In this document: positions 13,815 to 31,320 of the stretch, in pieces
How the letters are laid out: each line of letters begins with the position of its first letter
Position numbering within the stretch: position 1 is the first letter of the stretch
DNA from: Patescibacteria group bacterium
GTDB lineage: Bacteria; Patescibacteriota; JAQUNI01
DNA: 64,000 nt
Assembly (NCBI GenBank): GCA_028717685.1
Contig: JAQUNI010000001.1
Span: forward strand, 481,094 to 545,093
Reading direction: 5' to 3'
Made by a program: the position numbers and the translations under genes
The notes under the pieces: generated by a model
Told to the model about the DNA's origin: nothing
Database searches by the model: none
What the model saw: only the letters and a program-made list of their open reading frames with translations

Positions 13815-13842
13815 ATTTATTGGCAACATTACATAACAGCAT

Positions 13843-13912
13843 ATATCTGGCTCGCTCCCTGCAGTCAATTGACTCATATTCACTTCAGGTGGACATCAGA
13901 TATACACAAACG
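13843..13912 (+). repeat. conserved about 70 nt intergenic element 'Y', copy A
   Basis: tatatctggctcgctccctgcagtcaattgactcatattcacttcaggtggacatcagatatacacaaacg; related copies at 14916-14988 and 15838-15906. Confidence 0.6.
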
Positions 13913-14012
13913 TTGAATAAAATACCACTTACATTTCAAGGGGTGGAATTCAAATTGATGATAAATTTATAAAATCGCATTAGAAAATTATTAACTACTA
14001 ACGAAAAAACAA

Positions 14013-14351
14013 ATGGAAAACTTGGAACAAGAGAGTGGAGATATTCATACCAAAGAAGTTGAGAGGAACAATATTGATATCGAAGAAATCAAAAGGTTTT
14101 ATGATGTGATAGGCACCAAAATGCGTAATTTCACAAGACCATCCGGAAAACTGAATGTGGAAGCCTATGGAAGATTTATGGATTTTATGGATAAATTGGA
14201 AGAGAAATACGGGAAAGAAGAATTACGAAAATATGCGGCATGGCAGGCGGCAAGCGGCAGCAGTATTTTAGAGGACGAATTTATTGACATCACGGGGCTT
14301 GATCTTCCGGGTGAAGATTCCATAGAGAATTTTTTTGACTCACAAAAATGA
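14013..14351 (+). CDS. hypothetical acidic protein (paralog 1 of tandem pair)
   Basis: 112 aa, MENLEQESG...; about 55% identical to the downstream gene, with duplicated 5' leader. Confidence 0.5.
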   Translation: MENLEQESGDIHTKEVERNNIDIEEIKRFYDVIGTKMRNFTRPSGKLNVEAYGRFMDFMDKLEEKYGKEELRKYAAWQAASGSSILEDEFIDITGLDLPGEDSIENFFDSQK

Positions 14352-14373
14352 GCTGTCCGCCAATTAGGGAACG

Positions 14374-14404
14374 CCAGTTTAAGCGCGTATAATATTCAAG
14401 AATT
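14374..14404 (+). repeat. intergenic element 'X', copy 2
   Basis: ccagtttaagcgcgtataatattcaagaatt. Confidence 0.6.
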
Positions 14405-14513
14405 AAGATTTTTTCAGAAAACAATTCATATAAGAACGAGTTAAACGAAATTTTGCTCAACAAATATTTTTTATTTTTTATTAAAAAATTATTAACTACT
14501 AACGAAAAAACAA

Positions 14514-14852
14514 ATGGAAAACTTGGAACAAGAGAGTGGAAATATCTATACCGAAAAAATTGAGAGGAACAATATTGATATCGAAGAAATCAAAAGGTTT
14601 TATGATATGATAAGAACCAAAATGGAGAATGCCATAAGTCCATCCGGAGAACTGAGCGAGGAAGCCTGGGACAAACTTACGGATTTTATTCAACAATTGA
14701 AAAACAAATACGGGCAAGAAGAATTACAAAAATGCGCGGCATTCCATGCGGCAACCGGCAGTGGTATTCCCGAGGGTAAATTGGTTGATATCACAAGGCT
14801 TGATTTTCCGGGCGGAGATTCCATAGAGGATTTTTTGGACTCGCAAAAATGA
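14514..14852 (+). CDS. hypothetical acidic protein (paralog 2 of tandem pair)
   Basis: 112 aa, same N-terminus (MENLEQESG.I.T...ERNNIDIEEIKRFYD) and C-terminus (DSIE.F.DSQK) as 14013-14351. Confidence 0.5.
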   Translation: MENLEQESGNIYTEKIERNNIDIEEIKRFYDMIRTKMENAISPSGELSEEAWDKLTDFIQQLKNKYGQEELQKCAAFHAATGSGIPEGKLVDITRLDFPGGDSIEDFLDSQK

Positions 14853-14915
14853 ACAGGCTCGGATAATATTTTTCCTATCGGCAAAATAAAACTTTTCATT
14901 ACATCCAGTGACAGT

Positions 14916-14988
14916 ATATATCTGGCTCGCTTATTATAGTCACTCGAATCATATCCACCTAAGGCGGACATCAGATACACGTACACGC
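14916..14988 (+). repeat. intergenic element 'Y', copy B
   Basis: tatatctggctcgcttattatagtcactcgaatcatatccacctaaggcggacatcagatacacgtacacg. Confidence 0.6.
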
Positions 14989-14995
14989 AAATATT

Positions 14996-15808
14996 GTGCG
15001 CAATCAACAACCTAAAATTATGGATCAAAGCATACTTACAGAATGTGGAAAATTTGCAACCGAGTTGGCGAAAAACGCAGGAAGTCTGATCAAAAAACAC
15101 TTTGAGCAAAAATTAAATAAGACCAAAAAGGATAAAGAAGAAAGGAATTTTGTCACAAGAGCAGACCTTGAGTCAGAGGAATTCATCATCAACAGTATCA
15201 AAAAGGAATTTCCTGACCATAATATCTTAGCCGAGGAATCTGGGTCTCTCACGTCTCTATCAGGGTTTATTTGGATAGTTGATCCTCTTGATGGAACAAC
15301 AAACTTTTCAAGAAATTTGCCATTTTTCACGATTTCTATCGCACTCGCAAAAAATGATCGGGTTATTCTAGGCATTGTATATCAACCAATCAATGACGAG
15401 TTGTTTTATGCTGAAAAGGGAAAGGGAGCGTTCCTGAATGCAAAAAGAATTATCGTATCTGAAAATCACTCCTTATCAAAATCAATAGTCTCTCAAAGCT
15501 TTGATTATTCTAATAAAAAGAGAAGAGACAATATCAAAAATATACAGAAAATCTTCTTTTTGATTGAAGGTTTCAGATTGCTTCATTCAACCGCGTTGGA
15601 ACTTTGTTATGTTGCATCGGGACGATATGATGGATATATGATCTCAAGCGCAAACCCATGGGACATTGCGGCTGGGGCATTAATCGTGGAAGAAGCTGGT
15701 GGATCTGTGACTAAATTTGATGGTACACAATGGGAATTGATGCGCCCAAGGATTGTTGCTACGAATGGATTAATTCACAAAGAACTTCTAAAGAAAATAA
15801 ATACCTAG
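14996..15808 (+). CDS. inositol monophosphatase family protein (SuhB/CysQ-like)
   Basis: IMPase motifs IWIVDPLDGTTNF and WDIAAGALIVEEAGG. Confidence 0.8.
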   Translation: MRNQQPKIMDQSILTECGKFATELAKNAGSLIKKHFEQKLNKTKKDKEERNFVTRADLESEEFIINSIKKEFPDHNILAEESGSLTSLSGFIWIVDPLDGTTNFSRNLPFFTISIALAKNDRVILGIVYQPINDELFYAEKGKGAFLNAKRIIVSENHSLSKSIVSQSFDYSNKKRRDNIKNIQKIFFLIEGFRLLHSTALELCYVASGRYDGYMISSANPWDIAAGALIVEEAGGSVTKFDGTQWELMRPRIVATNGLIHKELLKKINT

Positions 15809-15837
15809 CAAGGATTGACTGCGCCCAACAGCGACTA

Positions 15838-15906
15838 TGCGGTTTCGCTCCCTTGCAGTCGCTCCACCCACATTCACTTCAGGCGGACATCGGATATCCG
15901 CGAACG
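15838..15906 (+). repeat. intergenic element 'Y', copy C
   Basis: gcggtttcgctcccttgcagtcgctccacccacattcacttcaggcggacatcggatatccgcgaacg. Confidence 0.55.
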
Positions 15907-15997
15907 TTATTGGCGATCTTTCGGGCTTAAAGAAAGGAGATAAGAAAGATTTGTTATTCATTATTTAAATAACAATGTTAAAAACATCGGAGGGTAT

Positions 15998-17998
15998 ATG
16001 AAAAAAATTCTAATCTTATTCTGCGCTCTAGTGGCTATTTTTTGGGCTATCCCAGTAATTCCAGATGCCAAAGCCGAGGACTTACCGAGCGGGGTTATTC
16101 CTAAACTGCCCAAGACGGCGAATGACCCTATTCTTTCCGAAGGCAAAATTTATCCTTTTTGGGGACCAGTATGCCAAAGATACACTTATTCTGTAATTTA
16201 CAGCGATAAAGAAGGCAGGACGCCGGAATATGTTAAGATTTATTTCAACGGCAAAATGATAGATATGGAAAAAGCGGACGCGAACGATAATAATTACAAA
16301 AAAGGAGTGAAATATATTTACAAGAATGTTCCGAATAAATTTGGTTCTAATTTTTATTATTTTGAGGCTTCAAATGGACTGGGCAAGACGCGCGATTCAA
16401 TTATTGACTCGCCAGATAACGGACCAGTGCTTTTTGATGCTGATTTTAAAGAGAATGAAATTATTTTGATTGATCCTGAAAGTGGAAACCTAAAGTGGCG
16501 CTATCCAATTCAAGAAGAGTGGGTCGGCGGAGTCGCGCTGTCTGATGATGGCAGATACTTGGCGGCGCAAACTTCCAATCATATTTACTTTTTTGACACG
16601 GAAAAAAGTGAGCCTTCTTGGAGCTATCAAAGTCCGACCGGCGGCGCGATAGGCGGAGATGTTAAAGGCGGAGTAGCGATTTCCGCTCGCGGCGATAAAA
16701 TTTTTGCCGCTTTAAACGGTAAGGCGTTGATGTTTGATCAAAACTCTAATCAGCCTATCTGGACCTATAATTTAGGTAATAATGGCGGAGGCGCTTATGG
16801 CGTGGACATTGCTAAAAACGGTGCATACGCGGCAGTGGCAATGGCTGGTTCGGAAGAAGACCTAAATAGCAATGTTTTGATCTTATTTGACGCCAAGGAT
16901 AAAAAGTTATGGCAATATCATTCCGCGGGCAACTGGCATGAGGTTAATTTATCACAAGATGGTTCATATATTGCCGGATCAACAGGTTGTCCGGATCGAA
17001 GGGGTTATCTTTTTACTAAAGACTCGGCTGAACCAATAATCAAGTCTGAACCTTTATCTAAAGAATCGCCAATTGACGAAACGCGAATATCGGCAGATGG
17101 CAGTTTAATCGCTTTCGGGGTTGAGTCAGGTTATGGTGCGATTGTTTTAATGGACGCGCAAAAAAAGGAAATTTTATGGAAATATGAAACTTCCCAGGGA
17201 ACATCTGTACGCGCGTTAGCAATGGCACCTAGTGGAAACTTGATTGGCGCTGGCACTTTTGGCGGCGATATTTTAATTTTTGAAAAAAATTCAAATAAGC
17301 CGATTGAAAAATTAAAAATTAATTCCACAATCGGCGCTTTTGATATAACGGATGATGGATTACTTTTTGCGACTGGTTCGGCTGATAAGAAAATCCGGGT
17401 ATTTGAAAAGGGAGCTGGCAAAGCAAAAGCGGAAATTTCAGCGAATGAATACGTCGGAGAATTAGATATCGCGGCAAATGGAAAATATTTAGCCGCAGGC
17501 ACAAGCGGCGCGGTATATTTTTTTGAAACGATCAGGGATTTGGAAAATAAGGGAGTTTTTGCCTGCAAGGAAATTATAGAACCCAAAGCAGAAGACACTA
17601 CATTGTTCGGTGGACAAAATAGCGGGAATAATTTGGCGGACAGTGCAGATAATCAAGAAAAACCAGTGAAAAAAGAAACGTCTTCTTGGCTTACGCGGGG
17701 CGCGATAATTTTTGGAGGAATATTGATAATTGCGCTTTTTGGCTACATTTTGATTTGCCGCAAACGCGCGCGACCGCCCAAAAAGTTGATTATCATTTTA
17801 ATATCATTTTCAATAATACTGGCTTTGATAGTTGTTTTTTACTTTGGACAATGGAAAAATGTTGAATCTGATAAAAGCTTAGATCAAGGCCAAATTAAAA
17901 AAGAAGGGCAGGAAAATATCTGTGGAAATACTTTGTGCGAGCCCAATTTGGGGGAAACAAAGGAGAATTGCGCCAAAGACTGCTTAGGCGGGGAATAA
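15998..17998 (+). CDS. secreted beta-propeller (PQQ/BamB-like repeat) surface protein with C-terminal TM anchor; paralog A
   Basis: Signal peptide MKKILILFCALVAIFWAIPVIPDAKAED; repeated (Y/F)xFD...P(I/L)W.Y blades; two C-terminal hydrophobic helices; Cys-rich tail. Confidence 0.5.
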   Translation: MKKILILFCALVAIFWAIPVIPDAKAEDLPSGVIPKLPKTANDPILSEGKIYPFWGPVCQRYTYSVIYSDKEGRTPEYVKIYFNGKMIDMEKADANDNNYKKGVKYIYKNVPNKFGSNFYYFEASNGLGKTRDSIIDSPDNGPVLFDADFKENEIILIDPESGNLKWRYPIQEEWVGGVALSDDGRYLAAQTSNHIYFFDTEKSEPSWSYQSPTGGAIGGDVKGGVAISARGDKIFAALNGKALMFDQNSNQPIWTYNLGNNGGGAYGVDIAKNGAYAAVAMAGSEEDLNSNVLILFDAKDKKLWQYHSAGNWHEVNLSQDGSYIAGSTGCPDRRGYLFTKDSAEPIIKSEPLSKESPIDETRISADGSLIAFGVESGYGAIVLMDAQKKEILWKYETSQGTSVRALAMAPSGNLIGAGTFGGDILIFEKNSNKPIEKLKINSTIGAFDITDDGLLFATGSADKKIRVFEKGAGKAKAEISANEYVGELDIAANGKYLAAGTSGAVYFFETIRDLENKGVFACKEIIEPKAEDTTLFGGQNSGNNLADSADNQEKPVKKETSSWLTRGAIIFGGILIIALFGYILICRKRARPPKKLIIILISFSIILALIVVFYFGQWKNVESDKSLDQGQIKKEGQENICGNTLCEPNLGETKENCAKDCLGGE

Positions 17999-18038
17999 AT
18001 AGTCAATTAATTTTAAAAATAAAAACATCGGAGGTTAT

Positions 18039-19964
18039 ATGAAAAAAAATTTAATCTTATTCTGCGCTCTAGTTGCTCTTTTTTGGGCTATCCCAGTAAT
18101 TCCAGACGCCAAAGCCGAGGATAAGCCAGCCGAATTAAATAATCAGCCGGCGGCTCAAATTTTCCCTAAATTGCCGACCACGCCCGATGACCCCCATTTG
18201 GATGACGCCAAGGTTTATCCGATGTGGGGACCGCTTTGCATGCGCTATACTTATTCCGTGGTTTATCAAGACGATAAAAACCGCGCGCCGGAATATATGA
18301 GGATGTATTTTAACGGCAAATGGCTTGACCTTGCAAAAGAAAACAAGAACGATTCTGATTACAAAAAGGGGGTAAAATATGTTTACAAGTTTGTGCCTAA
18401 TAAACTGGGCTCAAATTTCTATTTCTTTGAAGCTTCAAATGGCAAGGGCAAAGCGCGCGACGGGATTATTGATTCACCAGACAATGGGCCGGTTCTGTTT
18501 GAAACTGATTTTTCCCAAAATGAGATTGCCTTGATTGACCCGAAATCTGGCCAAAAATTATGGAGTTATCCCACCCACAAAGAATGGGTAAAAGGAGTAG
18601 CCCTTTCCGACGATGGCAAATATTTAGCGGCGACTACCACCAAACATATTTATTTCTTTGAAACGAGCAAGCAGAATCCGCTTTGGAGTTATCAGTATCA
18701 AGGCAGTTTTGATGTGGAAAACAATGATGTCAAAGGCGGCGTTGACGTTTCCGTCGATGGTTCCAAAATCTTTGCCCTGATTGGCAAATACGCTATTTTG
18801 TTTTCCAAAGATTCAAATCAACCAATCTGGCAGAAGGATGTCAAACAACAAGGCTACAACACGGCTATTTCGGCTGACGGGAAATATATGGCTGCGGGCA
18901 CGGCGGGGGATGAGAAAAATGTTGATACCAATTTATTAATATTATGGAGCGAAAAGAGCGCGACCCCCTTGTGGCAGTACCACGCCGCTGGCAACTTTCA
19001 TGATGTTTCTTTGTCTTTTGACGGCTCATATATTGCCGGAGCAACCGGCTGCCCCGACCGACGCGCCTATATTTTTTCCAAGGATTCAAACGAGCCAGTG
19101 ATGAGAAGCGATATGCTAGCCGAAGATTCTCCGGTCAACCGAGCTAAAATTTCAGCTGACGGGAAATACGTGGCTTACTCGGCTGAATATAACAAAGGTA
19201 TTGCCTTTTTGTTTAAAAATCCAAAATTTGGCGGCTCAAACCAGCCTGTCTGGAAACTTTTACCGCCCAGCCAACGTTCAGGCCGAGCTTTGGCAATGAC
19301 ACCGGATGCTAAAACCATCTTAGAAACAACTTTCGCGGGTGATGTTCTGACTCTTGGCCTTGCTTCAAATCAACCAACTGCTTATTGGAAGTATCCCAAT
19401 CCAATTGCCGCCGCCGATTTAAGCGACGATGGCAGGTTAATCGCTGTCGGCGGAACGGCGGAAAGAGTCTATCTCATTGACGGCGATTCCAAAAAACAAA
19501 CGGCGGAGGTTCAATTTTCAGAATATATCAGCGAAATTGATGTGGCAGGCGACGGCAAATATGTGGCGGCTGGCACTGGCGGCGCTAATTATTTTTTTGA
19601 ATCTTTTAGCCAAAATGAGAATAAAAAGGTTAGTTGCGATAAAGTTATTGAGCCGGAGCCGGAGATGGTCCAGGATCAAACCGATTCCAAGCTTTACGAC
19701 GGCGTTCAAGATGTTGATCAAAACTTGTCCGGCGGCAACGAGGTTAAACAATTTACGCAAAAAAATTGGCTCATTATTGTCTCAACCTTGGCTTGCTTAA
19801 TAATTTTGTTCTCAATAATTTTTGGCAAAACCAGAAAAAAATATTGGCTCATTATTATTATTTTGCTGATTATCGCTTTGGTATTGAGCTTAATTTTTTT
19901 CCGCAAACCTCCAAAATCTGATTTAGAAAAAACCGAACAGGGTACTCAATTAGAAAACCAATGA
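18039..19964 (+). CDS. secreted beta-propeller surface protein, paralog B of 15998-17998
   Basis: Near-identical signal peptide and N-terminal domain (YTYSV.Y.D...PEY...YFNGK...KKGVKY.YK.VPNK.GSNFY.FEASNG), same repeat architecture and C-terminal TM. Confidence 0.5.
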   Translation: MKKNLILFCALVALFWAIPVIPDAKAEDKPAELNNQPAAQIFPKLPTTPDDPHLDDAKVYPMWGPLCMRYTYSVVYQDDKNRAPEYMRMYFNGKWLDLAKENKNDSDYKKGVKYVYKFVPNKLGSNFYFFEASNGKGKARDGIIDSPDNGPVLFETDFSQNEIALIDPKSGQKLWSYPTHKEWVKGVALSDDGKYLAATTTKHIYFFETSKQNPLWSYQYQGSFDVENNDVKGGVDVSVDGSKIFALIGKYAILFSKDSNQPIWQKDVKQQGYNTAISADGKYMAAGTAGDEKNVDTNLLILWSEKSATPLWQYHAAGNFHDVSLSFDGSYIAGATGCPDRRAYIFSKDSNEPVMRSDMLAEDSPVNRAKISADGKYVAYSAEYNKGIAFLFKNPKFGGSNQPVWKLLPPSQRSGRALAMTPDAKTILETTFAGDVLTLGLASNQPTAYWKYPNPIAAADLSDDGRLIAVGGTAERVYLIDGDSKKQTAEVQFSEYISEIDVAGDGKYVAAGTGGANYFFESFSQNENKKVSCDKVIEPEPEMVQDQTDSKLYDGVQDVDQNLSGGNEVKQFTQKNWLIIVSTLACLIILFSIIFGKTRKKYWLIIIILLIIALVLSLIFFRKPPKSDLEKTEQGTQLENQ

Positions 19965-22747: not shown

Positions 22748-24082
22748 ATGAAAATAAAAAAAATCCTTATTATTCTCTTGGTTCCCGTCCTCCTCGCTAC
22801 GGTCGGTTTTGGCTGTAAAAGATCCTGCGCGCCAGGGCAACCCGGCGGAACCACTAAGAAACAGCCCGTTGAGCTTACTTTTTGGGGAATCTTTACCGAG
22901 AGCGGTCAGATTGAACCTGTGATTAAGGCTTTTGAAGCACAAAATCCCAATATTAAAATCAATTACAAAAATTTCGGCAATGATTACCCTAATTACCGCA
23001 CCGAAATTTTTAACGCCCTTGCTCAAGGCAGGGGACCTGATATTTGGATGGTGCACCATACTTGGATTCAAAGGGATAAAGATTTCCTGACCCCTTGCCC
23101 TCCGGAATTATGCAATGTCCAAAACTTTAAAGAGACAATGGTAAAAGCGGTCGTAGACGACAGCATTATTGACGGTTCTATCTATGCTATGCCTTGGAGT
23201 CTAGACACCTTAGCGCTTTTTTATAACAAAGATTTATTTAACCAGGCGCATATCTTAAACCCTCCGCGAACTTGGGAAGAATTTACAGAGGACGTGAAAA
23301 AACTCACCAAGCAAAATGAAAAGGGGCAAATCATACAAGCGGGGGCGGCTCTCGGCACAGGACAAAATATCAATCGCGCCCCTGATATCCTTGCTCTTCT
23401 GATGATGCAAAATGGCGCTCAAATGACAGACATAAACCGCGGCACAGTAACCTTTAACACCTCTGGCGCTCCCAGCGCGCCCTCCCCAAACGGCAGCCAG
23501 CAGCAGGAAACCTTGCCCGGCGAGGAAGCTTTTCAATTCTATACTGATTTTGCCTCGCCCAAAAAAGAAACCTACACTTGGAACTCTCTGCAACATTATT
23601 CCATTGACGCTTTCGTAGAAGGCTCTTTGGCGATGATGTTTTCTTACTCCTATCATGTGCCCACGATTCAATTAAAAGCGCCTAATCTGGACTTCGGGGT
23701 GGCTTTATTGCCGCAGGTGTCTGGAGGACGCGAGGTAAATTTCGCGAATTACTGGACAAATGTGGTCGCCACAAGGACTCCTTACAAAAAAGAGGCTTGG
23801 TCTTTCTTGGTTTTTGCCGCTCAAAAAGAAATAATGCAGAAGTTTTGCGAAGACAGCCGCCGCCCTCCGAGCCGGCGCGACCTTTACCAAATGTTTGACA
23901 ACGACCCGGAATTGCAACCTTTTACCAACCAAATTTTAACCGCGGAATCCTGGTATCGCTCGGATAACGACAAGACCGATGCAATCTTTGAAGAAATGAT
24001 TGAAGATGTGGTTTTAGGCAAAAAGAATATCCCCGAAGCGATGACGGAAGCCGCGGCAGAGATGCAGACGATGATGAAGTGA
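22748..24082 (+). CDS. ABC transporter extracellular solute-binding protein (family 1, sugar-type), lipoprotein signal
   Basis: Lipobox-like LATVGFGC; SBP_bac_1-like N-terminal block ELTFWG...I..F...NPNIKI; 444 aa; no adjacent permease/ATPase. Confidence 0.7.
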   Translation: MKIKKILIILLVPVLLATVGFGCKRSCAPGQPGGTTKKQPVELTFWGIFTESGQIEPVIKAFEAQNPNIKINYKNFGNDYPNYRTEIFNALAQGRGPDIWMVHHTWIQRDKDFLTPCPPELCNVQNFKETMVKAVVDDSIIDGSIYAMPWSLDTLALFYNKDLFNQAHILNPPRTWEEFTEDVKKLTKQNEKGQIIQAGAALGTGQNINRAPDILALLMMQNGAQMTDINRGTVTFNTSGAPSAPSPNGSQQQETLPGEEAFQFYTDFASPKKETYTWNSLQHYSIDAFVEGSLAMMFSYSYHVPTIQLKAPNLDFGVALLPQVSGGREVNFANYWTNVVATRTPYKKEAWSFLVFAAQKEIMQKFCEDSRRPPSRRDLYQMFDNDPELQPFTNQILTAESWYRSDNDKTDAIFEEMIEDVVLGKKNIPEAMTEAAAEMQTMMK

Positions 24083-24236: not shown

Positions 24237-24632
24237 ATGTTCAAATTCAAATTATTCTCCACTATAATCCTTGCCCTACTCGGAATATCTTTAGTCTTAA
24301 ACCTAGCCCACGCGGCTTTAGTGCCTTGCGGCGGCACGGGTCAACCGGAGTGCAATCTTTGCCATTTTTTTGTCTTAATCCAAACTATCTTTAAATATCT
24401 GCTGGGATTTCTGGGAATCGTGGCGCTGCTCATCTTTGTCATCATCGGCTTTATGTTTTTATTCGGTTCCACCAATGAAGGTCTGCTCACTACCGGCAAA
24501 AAGGCTCTGACCTCCGCGATAATCGGTCTTGTCCTGGTGCTCGTCGCTTGGCTTATAATCAACACTGTGGGCTACGCCATAGGTTGGGCGCAAAAAGGCA
24601 GCTGGTGGACATTTAATTGCGTATCAGAATAA
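24237..24632 (+). CDS. VirB2/TrbC-like two-TM pilin-family protein (member 1 of array)
   Basis: Signal peptide, 4-Cys loop (PCGGTGQPEC.LC), two hydrophobic helices separated by FGSTNEGLLTTGKKAL loop. Confidence 0.45.
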   Translation: MFKFKLFSTIILALLGISLVLNLAHAALVPCGGTGQPECNLCHFFVLIQTIFKYLLGFLGIVALLIFVIIGFMFLFGSTNEGLLTTGKKALTSAIIGLVLVLVAWLIINTVGYAIGWAQKGSWWTFNCVSE

Positions 24633-24633
24633 A

Positions 24634-24664
24634 CCCTATTAGAAAACTTTGCTTCTAACGGGGT
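24634..24664. repeat. CCCCGTTAGA-family short hairpin after pilin gene 1
   Basis: ccctattagaaaactttgcttctaacggggt. Confidence 0.6.
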
Positions 24665-24687
24665 AAAAACATTTTTATAATTTCAAA

Positions 24688-24738
24688 GGATGTCACTCGC
24701 GAGCCACGTCGTTCGCGAACGACGTGGCGAGTGATATC
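24688..24738. promoter_or_regulatory. 51 nt near-perfect palindrome with GTCGTTCGCGAACGAC core, 9 nt upstream of the giant pilin-adhesin ATG
   Basis: ggatgtcactcgcgagccacgtcgttcgcgaacgacgtggcgagtgatatcc; shares core and flanks (aaaggatgtc...atcctaaaa) with the palindrome at 41548-41571 upstream of dnaA. Confidence 0.55.
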
Positions 24739-24746
24739 CTAAAAAA

Positions 24747-27700
24747 ATGAACACAAAATCTATTTTCAAACTTCTATTTCTTTGTTCTGTAATCTTTATA
24801 CTCGGATTTTCTATCGCACATTCTGCTTTAGCGACTGAACCGATTAATGTTAGTTTGGAAAACCCTATCGGAACAGACACGGTCACAGGGCTCATTAATA
24901 AAATCACGGGCTGGGTTTTAGGCATCGCGGGTTCCATTATGATGATTGTTTTGATTTTCGCGGGTTTTCGCTATTTAACCGCCGGAGCTAATGAAGACAG
25001 AGCCAAAAGCGCCAAAAAAATGCTGACGTGGGCGATTATTGGCATCGCGATAATCGTCGGCGCGGCTGCGATTACCAACGCGGTAATGGACGCGCTGGGC
25101 GTACCTGAAACTACTACCGGCGGGGGAGGGGGTACGGCAAACGTGGCGGCAGCTTTGGACACAATAGAATTGGCTCCGGAGGGCGATCTCAATGGAGATG
25201 GAGAAATCAACGCCGGAGATACGATAAATGTTGTTGCTAATTTAACTAATAATAGTGATCAAGATATTACTCTGAATAATGTCCGCCTCATTGCGGTTGC
25301 GGCTGGCTCTGCAACGGGAATGAATAATCTTGAGCAAGGGGACAAAAAAAAAGTAGCGGGGGCAAGCACATTGATCGCTGACGAACAAGAAATTCTTAAA
25401 TGCGGCTACAGGGAATACTGGATTATTAGAGAATTTGGCCCGATTACCGTTAAAGCGCGGGAAACCGTCGGCTTGCACTCGGAATGGACAGTTCTCAATA
25501 TTCCGGATAATATTTTAATCCAATTAGAAACATCAGACGCAACCCAGCAACAAGCCTGTGAACTTTTAGGCAGGGTGCCGATAGATGGAGGCGAGAGCGG
25601 AACTAGCGGCTTATTAAGTTATGTAAGCCACACGGTGAAGAGAAGCAGTATCGAAAATGAGAGCGCGGAGCCTAAAGTCGCGCCCGGGGCAGAAGTCACA
25701 ATGGAGGTCTGCCTGAAGAATACAGGCGGCGAAGAAATCGATGACGCGAATGTAAATCTTTCCCCGCAAGAGGATGGGGTTAGTGTCTTAAATAACCCGC
25801 GTAGGTACGCGGGGGTAGATCCCGAGGAAGTAGCATGCAAAGACTACGACTTTTCAATCGCGGCAGATTATAAACCAACATCAATCAATTTTAAAATCCA
25901 AGACGCAACGTCAGATGACAAAGTCAGCGAATCTAATATTAAGGTGGATTTAGGCACGGGAGGAGAAGGAGGAATAGAGGAAGGCACATGCAACAGCAGC
26001 AGCGGTTGTGTGACTTTCCAGGAATACACCATTCAGGATAGCTCTATTGGCGGATCAAGGCCAAACGCTAAGGTTGTTCCCGGAGCGACTGTTATGATGC
26101 GTGTTTATTTAGAAAATCAAACCAGCACAGACTTTGGGGACACTATACAGGCAACTCTCACCACCAGCGATAGTGGCGTTACTGTCACGAATAATCCGGG
26201 GAAATATAGCGGAATGCATATTAACAAACACGAATATTACGGATACACATTTTCCATTCCGGGAAGTTACACTAAAAATTCCATAAATTTTACGATCCAA
26301 GGAAGCAAAGTAACCTCAACAAATTTTACTGTGCCGATAGACACAAGTTTTAAACAGAATTTAACCGCCCTCTACTTCGGATCCGGAATAGGCAACACAC
26401 TAGTGGTTAAGGGTACCATCCTGCATCCCACTTTTTCCATTAAGAATACCGGCGCGATGGCTCTTGCCGCGAATCAAGATTTTAATGTTGAATTATACGC
26501 CTGCTATAGCAAAGACGCAGATGCCTGCGCTGGATTAACCAGCAAGCCAGAATATAAATTCTATTCTGGCAGTGCGAAAGAGATGTCCGGCGGGTGGACA
26601 AGCATACCGTCAGGAGGATACGTGGCGGTGAAATATCCCTTAGATTTCGAAGTCAAAGAACAGAAAAATCTTTATCTCGGCATTAAAATAGACACGGGCA
26701 ACAGCATTAATGAAAGCAACGAGAATGATAATACGGGCGGACCATACGAAGTTCAGATCGCTAGCTGGAACGCGGAGGTCAAAGAATTGACTTTAGACGA
26801 TGATCCGACCCAAGGGACTAAAATTACTTATCTCGATCCTCCAGCAAATACCAAAATAGTTTATCGCGGTTCATTTAAAATCACGAACACAGGAACGGGC
26901 AACACTAATCTGGGTTCAACGGATTTTTATTACAAAATTGACCTTATTGACGGACCTTGCGCGGAATCCACTCCAGGATTATATAATAGCCAGGAGCAAC
27001 AATTAACGGGCTATCTTCTTCCCGGCAACTCTGTGACTAAAAATTTAGAAATTGATACGAGGCAGAATTATCCGTTCACTTGGCAGACTGGAAAATCTTA
27101 CAGAGTAAGGATTATATTGAAGGATCACAGTACACTTGAACAAATACCCAATAAAGTGGTTTGCGCCGCGCCTTTCACCTACGGCGGGGAGCCTACCCTT
27201 ACTTATAACGCCAAGGTTCTAAACGCGAGCCTTACCACAACGGGGGTCACTAACTATCTCTATGTGTATGGCAAGGTAAAAAATGACAGCACAAAAAAAG
27301 CGGATGTTAGCTACGGCTGGAGCATTAATAAAAATAGCAGCGGCGCGACGGATAACTTTGGCTGTTTACAAAATGCTTCTACTTATAATTCAGGCGAAAC
27401 TATGAACGCGGGATCAATGCCCGCGGACAGTGAAGTTACAATAACCAGCGGACACATCGACAAGCCTGCTGAAAATGGATATTACCAAACAGTAGTTACG
27501 GCAAATGTTCCCGGGGATACAGATGCAACAGATAATAAAAAATGCTCTACTCCTCTTAAAATAGAAAGTGGCGGAACAAAACCGCCACCTATAGAGCCTG
27601 CTATATCTTACGACCTGGAAGCAAGTAAGGCGGTATTGAGTTATGATCCTGCCGCTAACCGATTTAAAACCACTATCTGCGTCAAAAATCACAGCACTAA

Positions 27701-28466
27701 AAATGGTGAAGCTTATAGCGGTTTTATAGGATATTACTCATGGTCTTTAAGAAGAGATGGCATCGAATCTGTGGAGGCTTCAATGAGCGGTTTCACGGCC
27801 GGATCAGGCGAAGAACAATGTTTTGATGCTAACCCATACCGAACAGAGCTTGGCGAGTATCGGTTTTCTTTAATTACCAGCGTGGGCAACCAAAATATAG
27901 ATGTTAAGCCCGGCAATGATTCAATATGGTCCAATACAGTAACAATTTCCGAAACTCCCCCCGTACTGCCCCCATCCGCTCCAGCTGACTACAAGACAGA
28001 AATCTCTACTTACGGTATGACCGCTAATCCGCCGGATAATCCCGGGACTTATAATTACCGCATTACCTACGAAAACAAAAGCACCCAAGATGGTCAACCG
28101 ATCAGGGCAAATGTGAGTTGGGGCGTTAAGATGTTGCGCAACGACTCTTTGCCAACGGGCTGCCCGGCAAGCGGCGGATCTACGGTATTCTCATATAATA
28201 CAGTCATCGATGCTCAGAACGGCATTTTCGTGGATATGTATGGCGATAGTTATAAACCGAGCCAAGAAGGATATTACCATTTAGAGGCTTGGGCTGGGGT
28301 TAGCGGTTACGAAGACAGTAAAAGTTATAAATGCACTAGCACGGTGCATCACGTTCCCGCCACTTCCGCAAGTTTAGACCTCTCCAGCGCCAATGCCTTT
28401 GCGCTGCCGCTTTTAGACGAGCAAATCAAAAATTTCTGGCAAAAATTGCAGGAGGTGATAGAATAA
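24747..28466 (+). CDS. giant surface protein: N-terminal VirB2/TrbC-like pilin module fused to about 1100 aa Thr/Gly/Asn-rich extracellular domain with CARDB/Ig-like repeats (putative adhesin)
   Basis: Residues about 45-115 (ITGWVLGIAGSIMMIVLIFAGFRYLTAGANEDRAKSAKKMLTWAIIGIAIIVGAAAITNAV) match the two-TM pilin unit of the downstream paralogs; downstream repeats like KV.PGA.V.M.V.L.N.G. Confidence 0.55.
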   Translation: MNTKSIFKLLFLCSVIFILGFSIAHSALATEPINVSLENPIGTDTVTGLINKITGWVLGIAGSIMMIVLIFAGFRYLTAGANEDRAKSAKKMLTWAIIGIAIIVGAAAITNAVMDALGVPETTTGGGGGTANVAAALDTIELAPEGDLNGDGEINAGDTINVVANLTNNSDQDITLNNVRLIAVAAGSATGMNNLEQGDKKKVAGASTLIADEQEILKCGYREYWIIREFGPITVKARETVGLHSEWTVLNIPDNILIQLETSDATQQQACELLGRVPIDGGESGTSGLLSYVSHTVKRSSIENESAEPKVAPGAEVTMEVCLKNTGGEEIDDANVNLSPQEDGVSVLNNPRRYAGVDPEEVACKDYDFSIAADYKPTSINFKIQDATSDDKVSESNIKVDLGTGGEGGIEEGTCNSSSGCVTFQEYTIQDSSIGGSRPNAKVVPGATVMMRVYLENQTSTDFGDTIQATLTTSDSGVTVTNNPGKYSGMHINKHEYYGYTFSIPGSYTKNSINFTIQGSKVTSTNFTVPIDTSFKQNLTALYFGSGIGNTLVVKGTILHPTFSIKNTGAMALAANQDFNVELYACYSKDADACAGLTSKPEYKFYSGSAKEMSGGWTSIPSGGYVAVKYPLDFEVKEQKNLYLGIKIDTGNSINESNENDNTGGPYEVQIASWNAEVKELTLDDDPTQGTKITYLDPPANTKIVYRGSFKITNTGTGNTNLGSTDFYYKIDLIDGPCAESTPGLYNSQEQQLTGYLLPGNSVTKNLEIDTRQNYPFTWQTGKSYRVRIILKDHSTLEQIPNKVVCAAPFTYGGEPTLTYNAKVLNASLTTTGVTNYLYVYGKVKNDSTKKADVSYGWSINKNSSGATDNFGCLQNASTYNSGETMNAGSMPADSEVTITSGHIDKPAENGYYQTVVTANVPGDTDATDNKKCSTPLKIESGGTKPPPIEPAISYDLEASKAVLSYDPAANRFKTTICVKNHSTKNGEAYSGFIGYYSWSLRRDGIESVEASMSGFTAGSGEEQCFDANPYRTELGEYRFSLITSVGNQNIDVKPGNDSIWSNTVTISETPPVLPPSAPADYKTEISTYGMTANPPDNPGTYNYRITYENKSTQDGQPIRANVSWGVKMLRNDSLPTGCPASGGSTVFSYNTVIDAQNGIFVDMYGDSYKPSQEGYYHLEAWAGVSGYEDSKSYKCTSTVHHVPATSASLDLSSANAFALPLLDEQIKNFWQKLQEVIE

Positions 28467-28536
28467 AATCACAACGCGAGCGATAGGGCGCCGCGAGCGG
28501 CTAAAAAACACAAGATCAAAATCAAATAAAAAACCA

Positions 28537-29070
28537 ATGAAAAAATCCAAATATCCGCAAATTTTCTGCTTGAGCATCTTCCTGCTCCTCTTTGGTTTTT
28601 CTGTTTTCACCGCAACGGCGCAAGATGAACCTACTGGATTACAACGCCCTGACGCCGCGGCGGCTGGACTGCCCGCGGGTGACTTCAAGGCTTTGATTAA
28701 CGGCATTGTAAAATGGGTGCTTTGGATCGCAGCGCCAGCTTGTTTAGTCGCTCTTGTTTACGGCGGGATGCGTTATGCCTTTGCCGGAGGAAGTGAAGAG
28801 AAGGCTGAAAATGCGAAGAAGATAATGAAATACGCAGTCATTGGCGTCGCGATCATCATCGCGGCTTACGCTATTGTCGGCTTAATCACCGCGCTTATTT
28901 CCGGCGAAGTGCCGGCAACGCCAGAAGTCAACGGAAGTAATGCCACTCCGAAACGATTTGCTGGCGGTTGCCCAAGTCTGGGACAAGGGGCTCGCTGTGT
29001 CAATGCTGACAATGTACAAAGTCTATGTAATTGTGAGACCACTGATCCTAATAGCTGTTACTGTCCTTGA
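28537..29070 (+). CDS. pilin-family protein with C-terminal 8-Cys knot-like tail
   Basis: Signal peptide; WVLWIAAPACLVALVYGGMRYAFAGGSEEKAENAKKIMKYAVIGVAIIIAAYAIVGL two-TM unit; C-terminal CPSLGQGARCVNADNVQSLCNCETTDPNSCYCP. Confidence 0.5.
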   Translation: MKKSKYPQIFCLSIFLLLFGFSVFTATAQDEPTGLQRPDAAAAGLPAGDFKALINGIVKWVLWIAAPACLVALVYGGMRYAFAGGSEEKAENAKKIMKYAVIGVAIIIAAYAIVGLITALISGEVPATPEVNGSNATPKRFAGGCPSLGQGARCVNADNVQSLCNCETTDPNSCYCP

Positions 29071-29129
29071 TAACATTTTTATATTTCTCCACAAAATAAA
29101 ATCAATAAAATTGAAGGGAGGTGAAATAA

Positions 29130-29537
29130 ATGAAGTTAAATTACAAAAAAATTGTTCCCATACTAAGTCTTTTCACTATAATTAGTTTGTTTGGTCTTTA
29201 TAGTTTCACAGCAATAGCAGCAGATCCAACAGACACATGGAAAGAACAAAAGATCCCCGTAACAGGCCCAGAAATGTCCACTGACGCGCCCAAGAATATG
29301 GTTACCATAGCCCTGAACTGGTTCTATATCATTGCCGCCGTTCTTTGTGTGGCTGTTATTATTTGGGCAGGAATTACCTATGCGACCGCAGGTGGCGACG
29401 AGGAAAAGGTGGGGAAAGCAAAAAATCGTCTTATTTACGGCATCATTGGGGTAGCCTTGATTATCGGCGCTTACGCGATTACCCAACTGATTAAAAGTGC
29501 GATGTCTGGTACAGCACCAGCAGCGCCAACATTGTAA
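29130..29537 (+). CDS. pilin-family protein (two-TM unit YATAGGDEEKVGKAKNRLIYG)
   Basis: Signal peptide + WFYIIAAVLCVAVIIWAGITYATAGGDEEKVGKAKNRLIYGIIGVALIIGAYAITQL. Confidence 0.55.
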   Translation: MKLNYKKIVPILSLFTIISLFGLYSFTAIAADPTDTWKEQKIPVTGPEMSTDAPKNMVTIALNWFYIIAAVLCVAVIIWAGITYATAGGDEEKVGKAKNRLIYGIIGVALIIGAYAITQLIKSAMSGTAPAAPTL

Positions 29538-29575
29538 TAACCAAGACAAATAACTAAATATAATCAAAAAAGGAG

Positions 29576-30010
29576 GTGAGAACAATGTACAAACGCAAAC
29601 TGAAAAATCTGTTAATGTTATGCATTATTGCCTTAGTTTTAACAGGCCCGAGTTTGGTTTCCATAGCCCAAGCAGCAGACACAGAGGGTACTATCCCCAC
29701 TCAAATCCCTTCTGCTGGCTTTCAAGCAAAACCTAGCGATGCAGAAGTACAGGCAGCCCCTGGTAAACTACTGACCACAGGACTAAGTTGGTTCTATGCT
29801 ATTGCCGCAATACTTTGTGTGGCTGTTATTATTTGGGCAGGAATTACCTATGCGACCGCAGGTGGCGACGAGGAAAAGGTGGGGAAAGCAAAAAATCGTC
29901 TTATTTACGGCATCATTGGGGTAGCCTTGATTATCGGCGCTTACGCGATTACCCAACTGATTAAGAGTGCGATGTCTGGCAACGCACCAACAGCACCGAC
30001 ATTGCAGTAA
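29576..30010 (+). CDS. pilin-family protein, near-identical core to 29130-29537
   Basis: Shares a 167 nt stretch with one mismatch with the preceding gene; same two-TM unit. Confidence 0.55.
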   Translation: MRTMYKRKLKNLLMLCIIALVLTGPSLVSIAQAADTEGTIPTQIPSAGFQAKPSDAEVQAAPGKLLTTGLSWFYAIAAILCVAVIIWAGITYATAGGDEEKVGKAKNRLIYGIIGVALIIGAYAITQLIKSAMSGNAPTAPTLQ

Positions 30011-30035
30011 AAAGAACTAAAATAAACAAAAACAG

Positions 30036-30066
30036 ACTATCCGTTAACGGGTCTGTTTTTGTTTTG
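30036..30066 (+). terminator. hairpin + T-run after pilin gene
   Basis: cagactatccgttaacgggtctgtttttgtttt. Confidence 0.5.
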
Positions 30067-30133
30067 CGCAGTTTAGAAATTTCAATTATAATAAAGGCAA
30101 GGTAATAATTCTACCCAAATAAAAAACAAAATT

Positions 30134-30598
30134 ATGTCTAAAATTATCAAAAGCGCATTTTTTCTAATTCTCCTAACCGCGCCTTTGTTCTTTGCTCAAG
30201 GCGCCGGAGAAGAACCTGAATATTATTGCACCAAAAAACAAGACAATGGCGAATTGAAAAAATGCACCTCCAATGCGCAATGCGTGGGTTTGGGCACCTG
30301 CGTCAAAGTGTATCATGGCGGTTTTCAGCCAGCATACAATCCCGATACCCCTAAAGCATGGATTACAGCAGGTTTAAACTGGTTCTTAGCCCTCGCCGCG
30401 ATTCTCTGTGTTGCCGTTTTGGTTTGGGCTGGTATTACTTATGCCACAGCCGGCGGAGATGAAGACAAAGTAGAAAAAGCCAAGAAGAGAATGATTTATG
30501 GAGTAATTGGGGTTGCTTTTATTATTGGCGCTTTTGCAATTACCCAGCTCATCAAAACTGGCCTAGAAGGGAATCTGCCTACTAGCCCCGCTTTGTAA
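30134..30598 (+). CDS. pilin-family protein with N-terminal 6-Cys module
   Basis: EYYCTKKQDNGELKKCTSNAQCVGLGTCVKVY then WFLALAAILCVAVLVWAGITYATAGGDEDKVEKAKKRMIYGVIGVAFIIGAFAITQL. Confidence 0.55.
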   Translation: MSKIIKSAFFLILLTAPLFFAQGAGEEPEYYCTKKQDNGELKKCTSNAQCVGLGTCVKVYHGGFQPAYNPDTPKAWITAGLNWFLALAAILCVAVLVWAGITYATAGGDEDKVEKAKKRMIYGVIGVAFIIGAFAITQLIKTGLEGNLPTSPAL

Positions 30599-30630
30599 TA
30601 ACAAAACTGGCAATAAAAATATCAAAACTT

Positions 30631-30927
30631 ATGTTGGAATTGCCCTCCATTGATACCTACAACCTTTCCGCCCAAGTCTCCCGATTTGCCAATGAGAGCT
30701 TGATTACTTACCTTATTGGTCTCCCGATTATCTTTGGCATTTTGCTTTTGATTTACGGCATTTTTAAATTTGTATTTGCCGGTTCTTGCAAGCCGGATAA
30801 GGACGATGCGAGAAGATTGCTTTGGGTTTCTATAATCATCATTATCGTAGCAATCTTGGCTTACGCGATTTATTTTTGGATCTACGGCGCCGCGAACTCC
30901 GCTACTTTGCCTAATGCCGTAGAATAG
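30631..30927 (+). CDS. short pilin-family-like two-TM protein (member 7)
   Basis: Two hydrophobic helices with FAGSCKPDKDDARRLL loop; no signal peptide cleavage site obvious. Confidence 0.35.
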   Translation: MLELPSIDTYNLSAQVSRFANESLITYLIGLPIIFGILLLIYGIFKFVFAGSCKPDKDDARRLLWVSIIIIIVAILAYAIYFWIYGAANSATLPNAVE

Positions 30928-30937
30928 CATTCCCTAT

Positions 30938-30972
30938 GGTAGAGACGTTGCAATGCAACGTCTCTACTTTTT
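30938..30972 (+). terminator. rho-independent terminator closing the pilin array
   Basis: gtagagacgttgcaatgcaacgtctctac followed by ttttttt. Confidence 0.75.
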
Positions 30973-31074
30973 TTATCTTTGACAAAAAAGAGGAAATCAT
31001 TGACAATGTAGAAAGAAACGCTACTCCCACCCCCTCCACCTCCCCCTCTGGCAGGGGGAGAGGAACTCTTTTTT

Positions 31075-31158
31075 GCTCCCGTGGCGGAATTGGCATACGC
31101 GTAGCGCTTAGAACGCTATCCCTGAAAAGGGTTGCAGGTTCAAATCCTGCCGGGAGCA
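31075..31158 (+). tRNA. tRNA-Leu (anticodon TAG), long variable arm
   Basis: Acceptor gctcccg/cgggagc, anticodon stem tagcg/cgcta loop ctTAGaa, variable arm tccctgaaaagggtt, T-arm gcagg-ttcaaat-cctgc. Confidence 0.85.
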
Positions 31159-31320
31159 CACTTTTACGGTGTAATAGTTAAAAGTTCAAGGTGCAAAATT
31201 CAAAGTTGCAGTTTAAAGTTCAAAATTGAAAAACTTACAACTTTGAATTCAACTTTTCACTTTGAACTTTGAACTATTAACTAAGTTGCAGATCCTTCCC
31301 CCGGCACAAAAACACCTCCG

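Follow-up and report, generated by a model that had tools for sequence, protein, structure and literature searches.

Can a small secretion pilin carry a giant extracellular appendage, and what would such a protein be for? The question is raised by a 64,000-nt stretch of DNA (hereafter the window) from a Patescibacteria group bacterium (assembly GCA_028717685.1, contig JAQUNI010000001.1, positions 481,094 to 545,093 of the forward strand), in which seven pilin-like genes, M1 to M7, follow each other and the second, M2, encodes a protein of 1239 amino acids (aa). An original prediction, made from the sequence alone, had described these genes as a battery of VirB2/TrbC-like pilin paralogs in a bacterium of the candidate phyla radiation (CPR), and M2 as a pilin fused to an adhesin; it was right about the host. 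On balance, and with considerable room for doubt, we read the locus as an operon of VirB2-like (PF18895) type IV secretion system (T4SS) pilins from a Doudnabacteria-related Patescibacterium, associated with a pilus and including M2 as a modular pilin.

Patescibacteria contribute a sizeable part of bacterial diversity, and most of them are thought to be attached to other microbes. The only genetically tractable species cannot grow as an epibiont without its T4SS and pilin array. M2, which combines a frozen module with fast-evolving outer domains, would be a concrete candidate for a host-recognition component, and so would the wider set of Ig-like, CHAP and Cys-rich fusions described below.

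M1 to M6 share a VirB2-like pilin module

The seven open reading frames (ORFs) lie in series on the plus strand, where the original prediction had placed them, and span 24237-30927 with gaps of 114, 70, 59, 38, 123 and 32 nt; each has its own start codon (Table 1). The array is closed, as also foreseen, by an intrinsic terminator directly 3' of M7, which is the sole strong plus-strand terminator in the region. A hydrophobicity scan found three hydrophobic segments in each of M1 to M6 (a signal peptide and two transmembrane helices, TM1 and TM2), together with AxA-like cleavage sites and a short charged loop, and a MAFFT alignment placed all seven members in register across the hairpin. The loop motif that had been proposed for the whole array fits M3 to M6 well (TAGGDEEKVGKAK in M4 and M5, near variants in M3 and M6) and M2 approximately (TAGANEDRAKSAKK), but is degenerate in M1 and M7.

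M1 to M6 all passed the gathering cutoff of 26.6 bits for the Pfam family PF18895 (T4SS_pilin), M2 with 47.7 bits and the others with the scores given in Table 1. M2 also passed the cutoff for PF04956 (TrbC/VirB2; 35.5 bits, cutoff 27.9), for which M1 and M3 to M6 scored 19.6-25.1 bits (E 1e-3 to 2e-5) and stayed under it. The NCBIfam family NF045849 (Mbov_0395 family pilin-like conjugal transfer protein; cutoff 40 bits) was matched by M2 (45.0 bits), M4 (45.3), M5 (48.5) and M6 (45.3); M1 (27.1) and M3 (29.5) were under the cutoff and M7 gave no match. These profile scores support the view that the module of M1 to M6 is a VirB2/TrbC-like T4SS pilin module, as initially assigned. The N-termini of M1 to M6 lack the class III prepilin-peptidase motif (G/[FM]xxxE) and are ordinary Sec signal peptides. 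AlphaFold modelling had been named as a check. An AlphaFold2 (AF2) model of M4 (predicted local distance difference test, pLDDT, 71) consists of a helix at residues 8-30, corresponding to the signal peptide, and a hairpin at residues 53-86 and 91-126. The corresponding model of the M2 fusion is unreliable.

Table 1 Features of the pilin array and its immediate flanks (positions in the window; residue numbers refer to the protein concerned)
Feature	Position	Strand	Description
Solute-binding lipoprotein gene (SBP_bac_1/8)	22748-24082	+	Pfam match; directly upstream of the array; lipobox VGFGC
M1	24237-24632	+	131 aa; signal peptide; PF18895 37.5 bits; L002 ortholog 81% identical
M2	24747-28466	+	1239 aa; signal peptide 1-29, VirB2-like hairpin 43-113, TTTGGGGG linker, predicted all-beta region of ~1,100 residues, C-terminal helix
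M2 pilin module	24873-25085	+	Residues 43-113; counterpart of the plain 115-aa position-2 pilin in sister arrays
M2 extension, predicted extracellular	25107-28463	+	Residues 121-1239; ~eight predicted beta domains, two Cys each
M2 EF-hand/dockerin-like loop DLNGDGEINAGD	25185-25220	+	Residues 147-158, domain D1
M2 internal duplication	25623-26351	+	D2 (293-405) and D3 (418-535); hhalign
M2 CARDB domain	26403-26735	+	Residues 553-663; PF07705
M3	28537-29070	+	177 aa; PF18895 57.8 bits; C-terminal 6-Cys module, Cys 145-176
M4	29130-29537	+	135 aa; plain PF18895 pilin, 48.7 bits
M5	29576-30010	+	144 aa; GTG start; plain PF18895 pilin, 50.3 bits
M6	30134-30598	+	154 aa; PF18895 47.7 bits; N-terminal 4-Cys module, Cys 32-56
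M7	30631-30927	+	98 aa; leaderless two-TM pilin-like protein; no Pfam family
Intrinsic terminator	30938-30968	+	14-bp stem, 7 G-C pairs, 3-nt loop, then T-run TTTTTTTATCT
tRNA-Leu(tag)	31075-31159		3' of the array terminator

The M2 fusion is genuine and conserved

The ORF of M2, labelled 'pilin [Patescibacteria group bacterium]' at NCBI, recurs unchanged at 1239 aa, between M1 and M3, in a Logan contig that was assembled independently (L001). Uninterrupted orthologs exist in assemblies of differing samples: one of 1260 aa, 82% identical over the full length, in a Candidatus Doudnabacteria metagenome-assembled genome (JGI, ENA, NCBI and Logan assemblies; locus L002), and one of 1228 aa, 68% identical over the full length. 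Across the orthologs, the junction formed by the module, the linker and the first domain of the extension (D1) is among the best-kept stretches of the protein. As far as sequence data can tell, a chimera or a frameshift is rejected, because the ORF is identical in L001 and the full-length orthologs lie in syntenic arrays. The check on whether M2 joins two genes therefore ended in favour of the fusion, and so did that on its conservation in relatives.

The module itself, expected at about residues 45-115 and found at 43-113, is 48-55% identical to stand-alone pilins. In two other arrays, L017 and L020, the pilin in the second position (p2) is plain and 115 aa long; the M2 module is 48-53% identical to L017_p2 and L020_p2, and 55% identical to the C-terminal modules of two giant proteins, P0026 and P0030. 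The conserved motif of M2-type modules, FAGFRYLTAGA-E--A--AKKML-W-IIG, is kept across lineages at 48-55% identity. No other p2-type pilin was found in the window with a local pilin hidden Markov model (HMM). Since relatives have a plain p2 of 115 aa and the window has no further gene of this type, M2 corresponds to the position-2 pilin plus an added extension.

The extension is rich in Thr, Gly, Ser and Asn (9.3, 9.2, 9.1 and 7.4%). It begins directly after TM2 with a flexible Thr/Gly linker (residues 121-129), which is poorly conserved (53% in the relative P0003). An AF2 model of residues 40-1239, built on a three-ortholog alignment and used for its secondary structure alone, predicted that the extension is all-beta. 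None of its 16 Cys varies among the three orthologs, and they fall two to each unit of ~120-150 residues, which led us to parse the extension into about eight disulfide-bonded extracellular domains, D1 to D8. D2 and D3 represent a clear internal duplication (hhalign probability 99.1%, E 6.5e-19), and D6, D7 and D8 are weakly alike (hhalign, E ~2e-3 to 5e-3); a self-BLAST of M2 gave no off-diagonal matches. The CARDB family PF07705 matches D4 alone (28.4 bits, cutoff 22.7), and an iterative HMM seeded with this segment did not grow beyond that single domain; the homologous region of another relative, P0008, scores 33.2 bits with PF07705. Of the CARDB/Ig-like repeats originally announced for the extension, one CARDB match and the D2/D3 duplication are retained, the other domains being without a family. 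D1 contains an EF-hand/dockerin-like loop in which 10 of the 12 positions do not vary among the three orthologs (the exceptions are E153 and A156) and which, to judge from its motif, may bind calcium. M2 ends in a conserved amphipathic helix (residues 1209-1239; 28371-28463) that is 94% and 84% identical to those of the two orthologs.

The constraint on M2 is unevenly distributed. In the comparison with the Doudnabacteria ortholog, the ratio of nonsynonymous to synonymous substitution rates (dN/dS) is 0.088 for the module and 0.115 for D1, as compared with 0.37-0.68 for D2 to D8; in the same comparison, it amounts to 0.091 for the neighbouring solute-binding lipoprotein (SBP) gene and 0.090 for that of an NTP-transferase. 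By this measure the module and D1 are as constrained as housekeeping neighbours and the outer domains evolve 3-6 times faster, as expected of a surface interacting with something variable.

The extension is also rare. A word-indexed homology search was insensitive (3 matches for M2, 4 for its module) and we used an exhaustive search of cluster representatives instead; among 1.84 billion of these, only the M2 cluster and P0008 matched the extension (relatives P0003 and P0008). P0008 (585 aa) is 37% identical over M2 residues 418-812 and lies in locus L007, described below.

M7 is a leaderless relative of the pilins and the most conserved member

The original prediction had attributed one module, with signal peptide and two helices, to all seven proteins. 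This holds for M1 to M6; M7 has two hydrophobic segments and no signal peptide, does not match PF18895 at E<=1 and belongs to no Pfam or NCBIfam family. Scored against an HMM of 29 stand-alone pilins, it nevertheless reached 24.5 bits, compared with a maximum of 8.0 bits for 300 shuffles and -1.8 for the reversed sequence. As this score is far above those of the shuffles, we regard M7 as a divergent, leaderless relative of the pilin hairpin. We also considered that it might be a VirB3/PrgI homolog; this had no Pfam or NCBIfam support, its best affinity being to the pilin HMM. M7 is the most conserved member of the array (93% identity to the L002 ortholog, dN/dS 0.109). Its family comprises ~16 clusters of 95-104 aa, annotated 'hypothetical', and a gene of this type closes the pilin array in the contexts examined (L002, L017/L018 and L020).

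The small paralogs are strongly diverged

Several of the small members carry Cys outside the hairpin, in numbers that differ from those first given. M3 has six Cys in its C-terminal tail rather than an 8-Cys module, the two others lying in the signal peptide and in TM1; M6 has four rather than six in an N-terminal insert, with one more in TM1; and M1, instead of a 4-Cys loop, has three N-terminal Cys (31, 39 and 42) and a C-terminal one (128), all on the ends of the hairpin that would be extracellular. These modules are gained and lost, the L002 counterpart of M6 being devoid of Cys module. The orthologs of M3 are 63% (L002) and 75% (locus L005) identical. Between sister genomes, dN is 0.31-0.49 for M3 to M6 (0.37-0.49 for M4 to M6), when dS of neighbouring genes is ~0.2-0.3. 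M5 is a recent duplicate of M4: the last 237 nt, which encode the hairpin (29774-30010 and 29304-29540), are 91% identical, and the exposed N-termini have diverged.

Gene order around the array is fixed

The array is chromosomal and proximal to the origin, with yidC, jag, dnaA (41586), dnaN and recF 9-15 kb downstream. Two Wzy-type ligases, two glycosyltransferases and a flippase are encoded downstream of it on the opposite strand. The local pilin HMM found no pilin module in the window outside M1 to M7.

This arrangement recurs. The Doudnabacteria locus L002 has, in order, the SBP gene, genes D1, D2 (the fusion gene), D3, D4 and D5 (the counterpart of M6), a 98-aa ortholog of M7 and Wzy genes. 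L017 (on a 707-kb scaffold), L018 and L020 contain a block made of an NTP-transferase, the SBP, five pilins, an M7-like gene, two Wzy genes, glycosyltransferases, a flippase, Jag and YidC. Best hits indicate positional orthology: p1 corresponds to M1, p2 to the M2 module, p3 to M3, p4 and p5 to M4-M6, and p6 to M7. The Doudnabacteria lineage has thus a pilin operon with a fixed gene order and neighbourhood (SBP upstream, envelope-polysaccharide cluster downstream) and a conserved 98-aa end gene, which provide handles for annotation.

The SBP gene, of the sugar-binding type, lies directly upstream of the array in L002 (8073-9377), L007, L017/L018 (4844-6124 in L017) and L020 (281-1594). The gap between the SBP and the first pilin is only 13-22 nt in L017 and L020, which makes co-transcription likely. 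We saw no gene for an ABC permease or ATPase in the window. The pilus has been speculated to import molecules of the host, which makes the association of an orphan SBP with a pilin operon intriguing.

L007 (CAYWOB010000038.1, 3455-7750) is arranged differently. An M1-type gene, a D1-like sequence and P0008, whose tail is rich in Cys, share one frame that is broken by three TAA stops, and a plain p2-type pilin comes next. Decay or rearrangement of a fusion may explain this, as may an error of assembly; we treated it as a mere hint of rearrangement, because the sequence is a scaffolded co-assembly with an N-run nearby. A 617-aa ORF of the same locus that appeared to fuse the SBP to a pilin was discarded as an artefact of this 100-nt N-run (4807-4906).

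The spot that follows the array varies. In the window (30979-31320) it is occupied by a tRNA-Leu(tag) and in L002 (16285-16657) by a GIY-YIG endonuclease gene. L017 contains a 530-aa multi-TM ORF on the minus strand (8349-9941), between the last pilin and the M7-like gene.

Pilin arrays are already known in Patescibacteria

The diversified pilin battery of the original prediction belongs to a published class (PMC12102498, PMC10633639, PMC12857230). Quinonero-Coronel et al. 2025 (PMC12102498) used PF18895 and PF04956 to screen 3,035 Patescibacteria genomes. VirB2-like pilin genes formed 441 arrays of 2-11 members, distributed over 383 assemblies, and the pilins of one array were on average 25% identical; with so many arrays on record, the present one is not new in itself. 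In the same study, T4SS genes were often near dnaA, PrgB-like adhesins were not detected, one genome of the Doudnabacteria class was listed as VirB4-positive, and the arrays were interpreted as an adaptation to host strains. In Southlakia epibionticum, a series of six pilins inside the T4SS cluster is essential (Wang et al. 2023, PMC10633639; PMC12857230). Three features of our locus are under-described, namely the giant C-terminal fusion and its conservation, the orthology of the pilins position by position in the operon, and the family of leaderless proteins to which M7 belongs.

PF18895 modules are fused to other large domains elsewhere

With the exhaustive search, 12,381 representatives were matched at E<=1e-3, the module accounting for nearly all of these matches. 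We classified the 150 best with the local HMM; since scores are summed, this sample is biased towards multi-module proteins. Two to eight modules in one polypeptide were found in 98 of the 150, and 42 were plain pilins. A single module accompanied by an N-terminal extension of at least 100 aa was seen in 7, one with a C-terminal extension of at least 100 aa in 2 (the M2 family and P0131), and the remaining one (P0008) had no module. The multi-module proteins, of which P0009 (820 aa, 8 modules) is an example, would have 4-16 TM segments. Their short linkers and the absence of internal signal peptides (checked in P0009) make them look like genuine 'polypilins' rather than tandem genes read through; we found no description of such proteins in the literature.

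The other fusions are diverse. P0026 (1263 aa) and P0030 (1350 aa) are Cys-rich giants with CarboxypepD_reg domains, a coiled coil and the module at the C-terminus, where it is also found in the Cys-rich P0088 (701 aa). P0131 (373 aa) combines a PF18895 module (residues 35-104) with a C-terminal CHAP/NlpC-P60 peptidoglycan hydrolase domain (259-349) and, from this architecture, could be a pilin-anchored wall-degrading enzyme; Patescibacteria T4SS loci mostly have no VirB1. In Candidatus Uhrbacteria (L010, MGDT01000003.1), two adjoining genes repeat the design of M2, with an N-terminal module and a giant extension, using unrelated domains: one encodes 592 aa (9812-11590; PF18895 and Big_5) and the other 2377 aa (11592-18725; PF18895 with Big_7, TIG, Big_5 and DUF4215), and both are flanked by housekeeping genes (HisRS, EngA). 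A genome scan with a five-sequence alignment of the module yielded 11 loci with M2-type modules, and in 4 of them (L009, L012, L014 and L015) a VirB4-like ATPase (PF19044/PF12846) is encoded within a few kb. In L015, a 385-aa protein made of module and extension is encoded ~1 kb downstream of the ATPase gene, with one 374-aa ORF between them.

A fusion of the M2 kind had been called unusual and functionally undescribed. The first part has to be qualified: judging from these architectures, the combination of a module with a large domain recurs across Patescibacteria and M2 is not unique in this respect. The second part agrees with our literature search, in which we found no published description of PF18895/VirB2-like pilin-domain fusions.

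How the array may work

VirB2-type pilins are oriented with the two ends of the hairpin towards the outside and with the basic loop towards the cytoplasm or the lumen of the pilus. The K/R-rich loops of the array members are consistent with this orientation. With the ends of the hairpin outward, every added feature, that is the Cys knots of M1, M3 and M6 and the extension of M2, would lie outside; the extension follows TM2 and would therefore be extracellular. The N- and C-terminal extensions of the other fusions are likewise attached at outward-facing ends.

We propose that the products are exported by means of their Sec signal peptide and inserted as helical hairpins. The small paralogs M3 to M6, diversifying fast at their exposed ends, would make up most of a short pilus or surface assembly that depends on a T4SS. 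M2 would join it at low stoichiometry through its unchanged pilin module, at the tip, as a sparse decoration or docked at the machine, and would present a long, disulfide-stabilised, fast-evolving host-binding stalk of about eight beta domains projecting over tens of nanometres. It might in this way fill the place of the adhesin that is otherwise missing from the T4SS loci of Patescibacteria. The leaderless, highly conserved M7 could be a non-variable partner in assembly or priming. That the module does more than anchor the protein is suggested by its housekeeping-level constraint and by its taking the place of the sole p2-type pilin. Going further, we would tentatively see in PF18895 a general modular system of VirB2 pilins, in which beta-sandwich stalks, CHAP domains and Cys-rich knots are built into, or docked on, a monoderm T4SS pilus, with M2 as the host-recognition subunit and M7 as an assembly or priming factor; this broader scheme is possible rather than probable. 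If it is true, such modular VirB2 pilins would be the missing adhesins of Patescibacteria T4SS.

Several observations weigh against a pilus-associated function. Pfam scans, which covered essentially all ORFs of at least 120 aa, found no VirB4, VirD4, VirB6, VirB8, PilB, PilC or PilD and no further T4SS (VirB3/PrgI and TrsD included) or type IV pilus gene within the 64-kb window, in agreement with the initial remark that it encodes no secretion ATPase, and T4SS genes are also absent from the syntenic loci L002, L017 and L020, where the array is syntenic with the SBP and the Wzy/glycosyltransferase cluster. No member of PF18895 has been shown to form a filament (2025 review, PMC12857230). A Foldseek comparison of the M4 model with the PDB gave no match at E<=0.001, a bare helical hairpin discriminating little, and profile searches of PDB sequences with the paralog and M2 alignments returned nothing informative and linked no solved pilin to the module. 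The tandem modules of the polypilins are equally consistent with an integral-membrane oligomerisation unit. An appendage of 1,100 residues on every subunit would be sterically incompatible with the helical lattice of VirB2, so that the incorporation of M2 would have to be sparse. Finally, the low confidence of the M2 model (pLDDT 37) restricted its use to secondary structure, and only one of about eight extension domains, D4, could be assigned to a family, for which reason the label 'adhesin' is weakly grounded. The missing ATPase is by itself unremarkable, because pilins are near virB4 in only 1,135 of the 1,948 assemblies that have both and are unlinked in ~40% (PMC12102498).

In the strongest of the alternatives, the hairpin is a non-polymerising two-helix membrane anchor, maybe an oligomerising one, that displays domains at the surface of the monoderm cell, M2 is a stalk adhesin independent of any T4SS, and its paralogs are small surface or membrane proteins. 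We consider this a serious contender, though a doubtful one. In addition to the absence of T4SS genes from the window and from the three syntenic blocks, it would account for the location of the array amid envelope genes (SBP, Wzy, glycosyltransferases, flippase and YidC), for the tandem modules in 98 of the 150 best representatives and for the fusion of CHAP and Ig-like domains, which could be attached to any anchor in this manner; eight beta domains would also be long enough to cross a thin wall and an S-layer. Yet the module, with its dN/dS of 0.088 and a motif kept at 48-55% identity, appears too constrained for a mere anchor, and it passes the curated cutoffs for TrbC/VirB2 and for the pilin-like protein of Mycoplasma integrative and conjugative elements (ICEs). 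Furthermore, the same type of module adjoins VirB4 in the 4 loci mentioned above, and the Southlakia array is located inside a T4SS cluster and is essential (PMC10633639). If the hairpin were nonetheless a mere anchor, the 'pilin' label of a very large family (~12,400 matched representatives) would be called into question. M2 would be a surface-exposed, host-facing protein whether it is associated with a pilus or simply anchored.

A second alternative is that the array supplies antigenically distinct or interchangeable major pilins, for host range or evasion as in Bartonella and Anaplasma, M2 being one more variant without an adhesin role. The duplication of M4 into M5 with divergence of the exposed N-termini, the hypervariability of M4 to M6 (dN above the dS of neighbouring genes), the gain and loss of Cys modules and the published interpretation of Patescibacteria arrays as an adaptation to host strains (PMC12102498) all go in this direction. 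On the other hand, the positional orthology of p1 to p6 across distant lineages points to distinct, non-redundant roles, M1, the M2 module and M7 are conserved rather than variable, and each gene has its own start codon. Scans for direct repeats and for terminators and promoters disclosed no silent-cassette structure, inverted repeats and invertible elements not having been searched for. As an account of the whole array we find this improbable; as a partial explanation for M3 to M6, it is compatible with the pilus-associated operon that we favour.

It is very unlikely that M2 is a pro-protein, the extension of which is cleaved off at the TTTGGGGG linker and secreted, leaving the module as an export or sorting signal. 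The idea rests on an analogy with the processing of RP4 TrbC (pilins of the TrbC and VirB2 kind are trimmed at the C-terminus and cyclised) and would suit a flexible linker located right after TM2. However, the window yielded no dedicated peptidase, TraF-like or other, conservation is poor in the linker but high in the flanking module and D1, and C-terminal trimming could not release the large domain of P0026, P0030 and P0088, which is N-terminal to the module. As to an artefact joining a pilin gene to a separate surface-protein gene, L007 could be cited in its favour (P0008 has an ORF of its own there, after in-frame stops, and what seemed to be an SBP-pilin fusion stems from an N-run), but the identical ORF of an independent assembly, the two uninterrupted orthologs and the conserved junction between module, linker and D1 reduce its likelihood to virtually nil.

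Other features of the window

Two large WD40/PQQ-like beta-propeller proteins with a hydrophobic C-terminal segment are encoded upstream of the array (15998-17998 and 18039-19964), syntenic with 1662-3662 of L002 and 41-1996 of L007; they may be further surface proteins. The 23S rRNA gene (5369-9237) matches over 3,869 nt a model of 2,925 nt, with ~940 nt of insertions, and the 5S gene comes 1.7 kb further (region 9238-10949); no 16S gene was found in the window, which carries six tRNA genes. CPR bacteria typically have rRNA genes of this sort, unlinked and with insertions. A protein with a SMODS-associated NUDIX domain (PF18167, 86 bits; 13110-13814) adjoins two ORFs without Pfam match (11167-12087, minus strand, and 12566-12979, plus strand), and this region may be the remnant of a defence-related locus. 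On the minus strand, a cluster at 55433-61365 encodes proteins with ATPgrasp_ST and Zn_protease domains, an ATP-grasp_3 domain, a MATCAP-like peptidase and a membrane protein with PKD and 7TM_transglut domains; it looks like a peptide-modification or ligase system.

Comparison with known systems

The closest relatives of the array are those published for Patescibacteria, including the Southlakia ML1 array. They share with it the PF18895/PF04956 family, tandem divergent paralogs, a chromosomal location near dnaA and a monoderm CPR host. The present array differs from them by its lack of adjacency to virB4 or other T4SS genes and by its flanks, the SBP on one side and the Wzy/glycosyltransferase cluster on the other. 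Neither the 1,100-aa extension of M2 nor a leaderless protein at the end of the array, such as M7, is mentioned in PMC12102498 or PMC10633639.

The likeness to the TrbC/VirB2 pilins of the T-pilus and RP4 lies in the signal peptide, the hydrophobic hairpin and the short basic loop, and in the TrbC score of M2. In contrast, M1 and M3 to M6 stay under the TrbC cutoff, similarity to solved pilins was undetected and the host is a monoderm. We know of no classical VirB2 that carries a large folded domain. The Mbov_0395/MMCAP2_0565 family of Mycoplasma ICEs, a component of monoderm conjugation of the mating-pair formation type FATA (MPF-FATA), is matched above 40 bits by M2, M4, M5 and M6, a likeness that fits the reported ancestry of Patescibacteria T4SS; unlike this protein, for which NF045849 is an 'equivalog' family and which belongs to a mobile element, the members of our array are encoded by a chromosomal operon that is conserved and has no ICE genes around it.

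Tandem amplification is also found in the VirB2 arrays of Bartonella and Anaplasma, for which a broader host interaction or immune evasion has been proposed, as cited in PMC12102498. Unlike ours, these arrays come from Gram-negative bacteria that infect eukaryotes as intracellular pathogens, and a complete VirB system is linked to them. To our knowledge, there are no giant fusions among the Bartonella and Anaplasma VirB2 paralogs.

The design of M2 resembles that of the modular type IV pilins PilB and PilC of Streptococcus sanguinis (PMC8179133, PMC9934059), in which a pilin module is covalently joined to a bulky functional (adhesive) module that lends binding activity to the filament, and in which the subunits so built are minor components. 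The resemblance goes no further than analogy: the filaments are unrelated, and type IV pilins possess one N-terminal helix and a class III leader that a prepilin peptidase removes, whereas M1 to M7 have no such leader. Likewise, M2 has no sequence relation to PrgB of Gram-positive bacteria or to VirB5 of the pilus tip, and it would be held by its pilin hairpin rather than by a sortase or by non-covalent docking at the tip; the role that we propose for it is nonetheless the same as theirs, namely that of a surface or tip adhesin bringing the T4SS into contact with its target.

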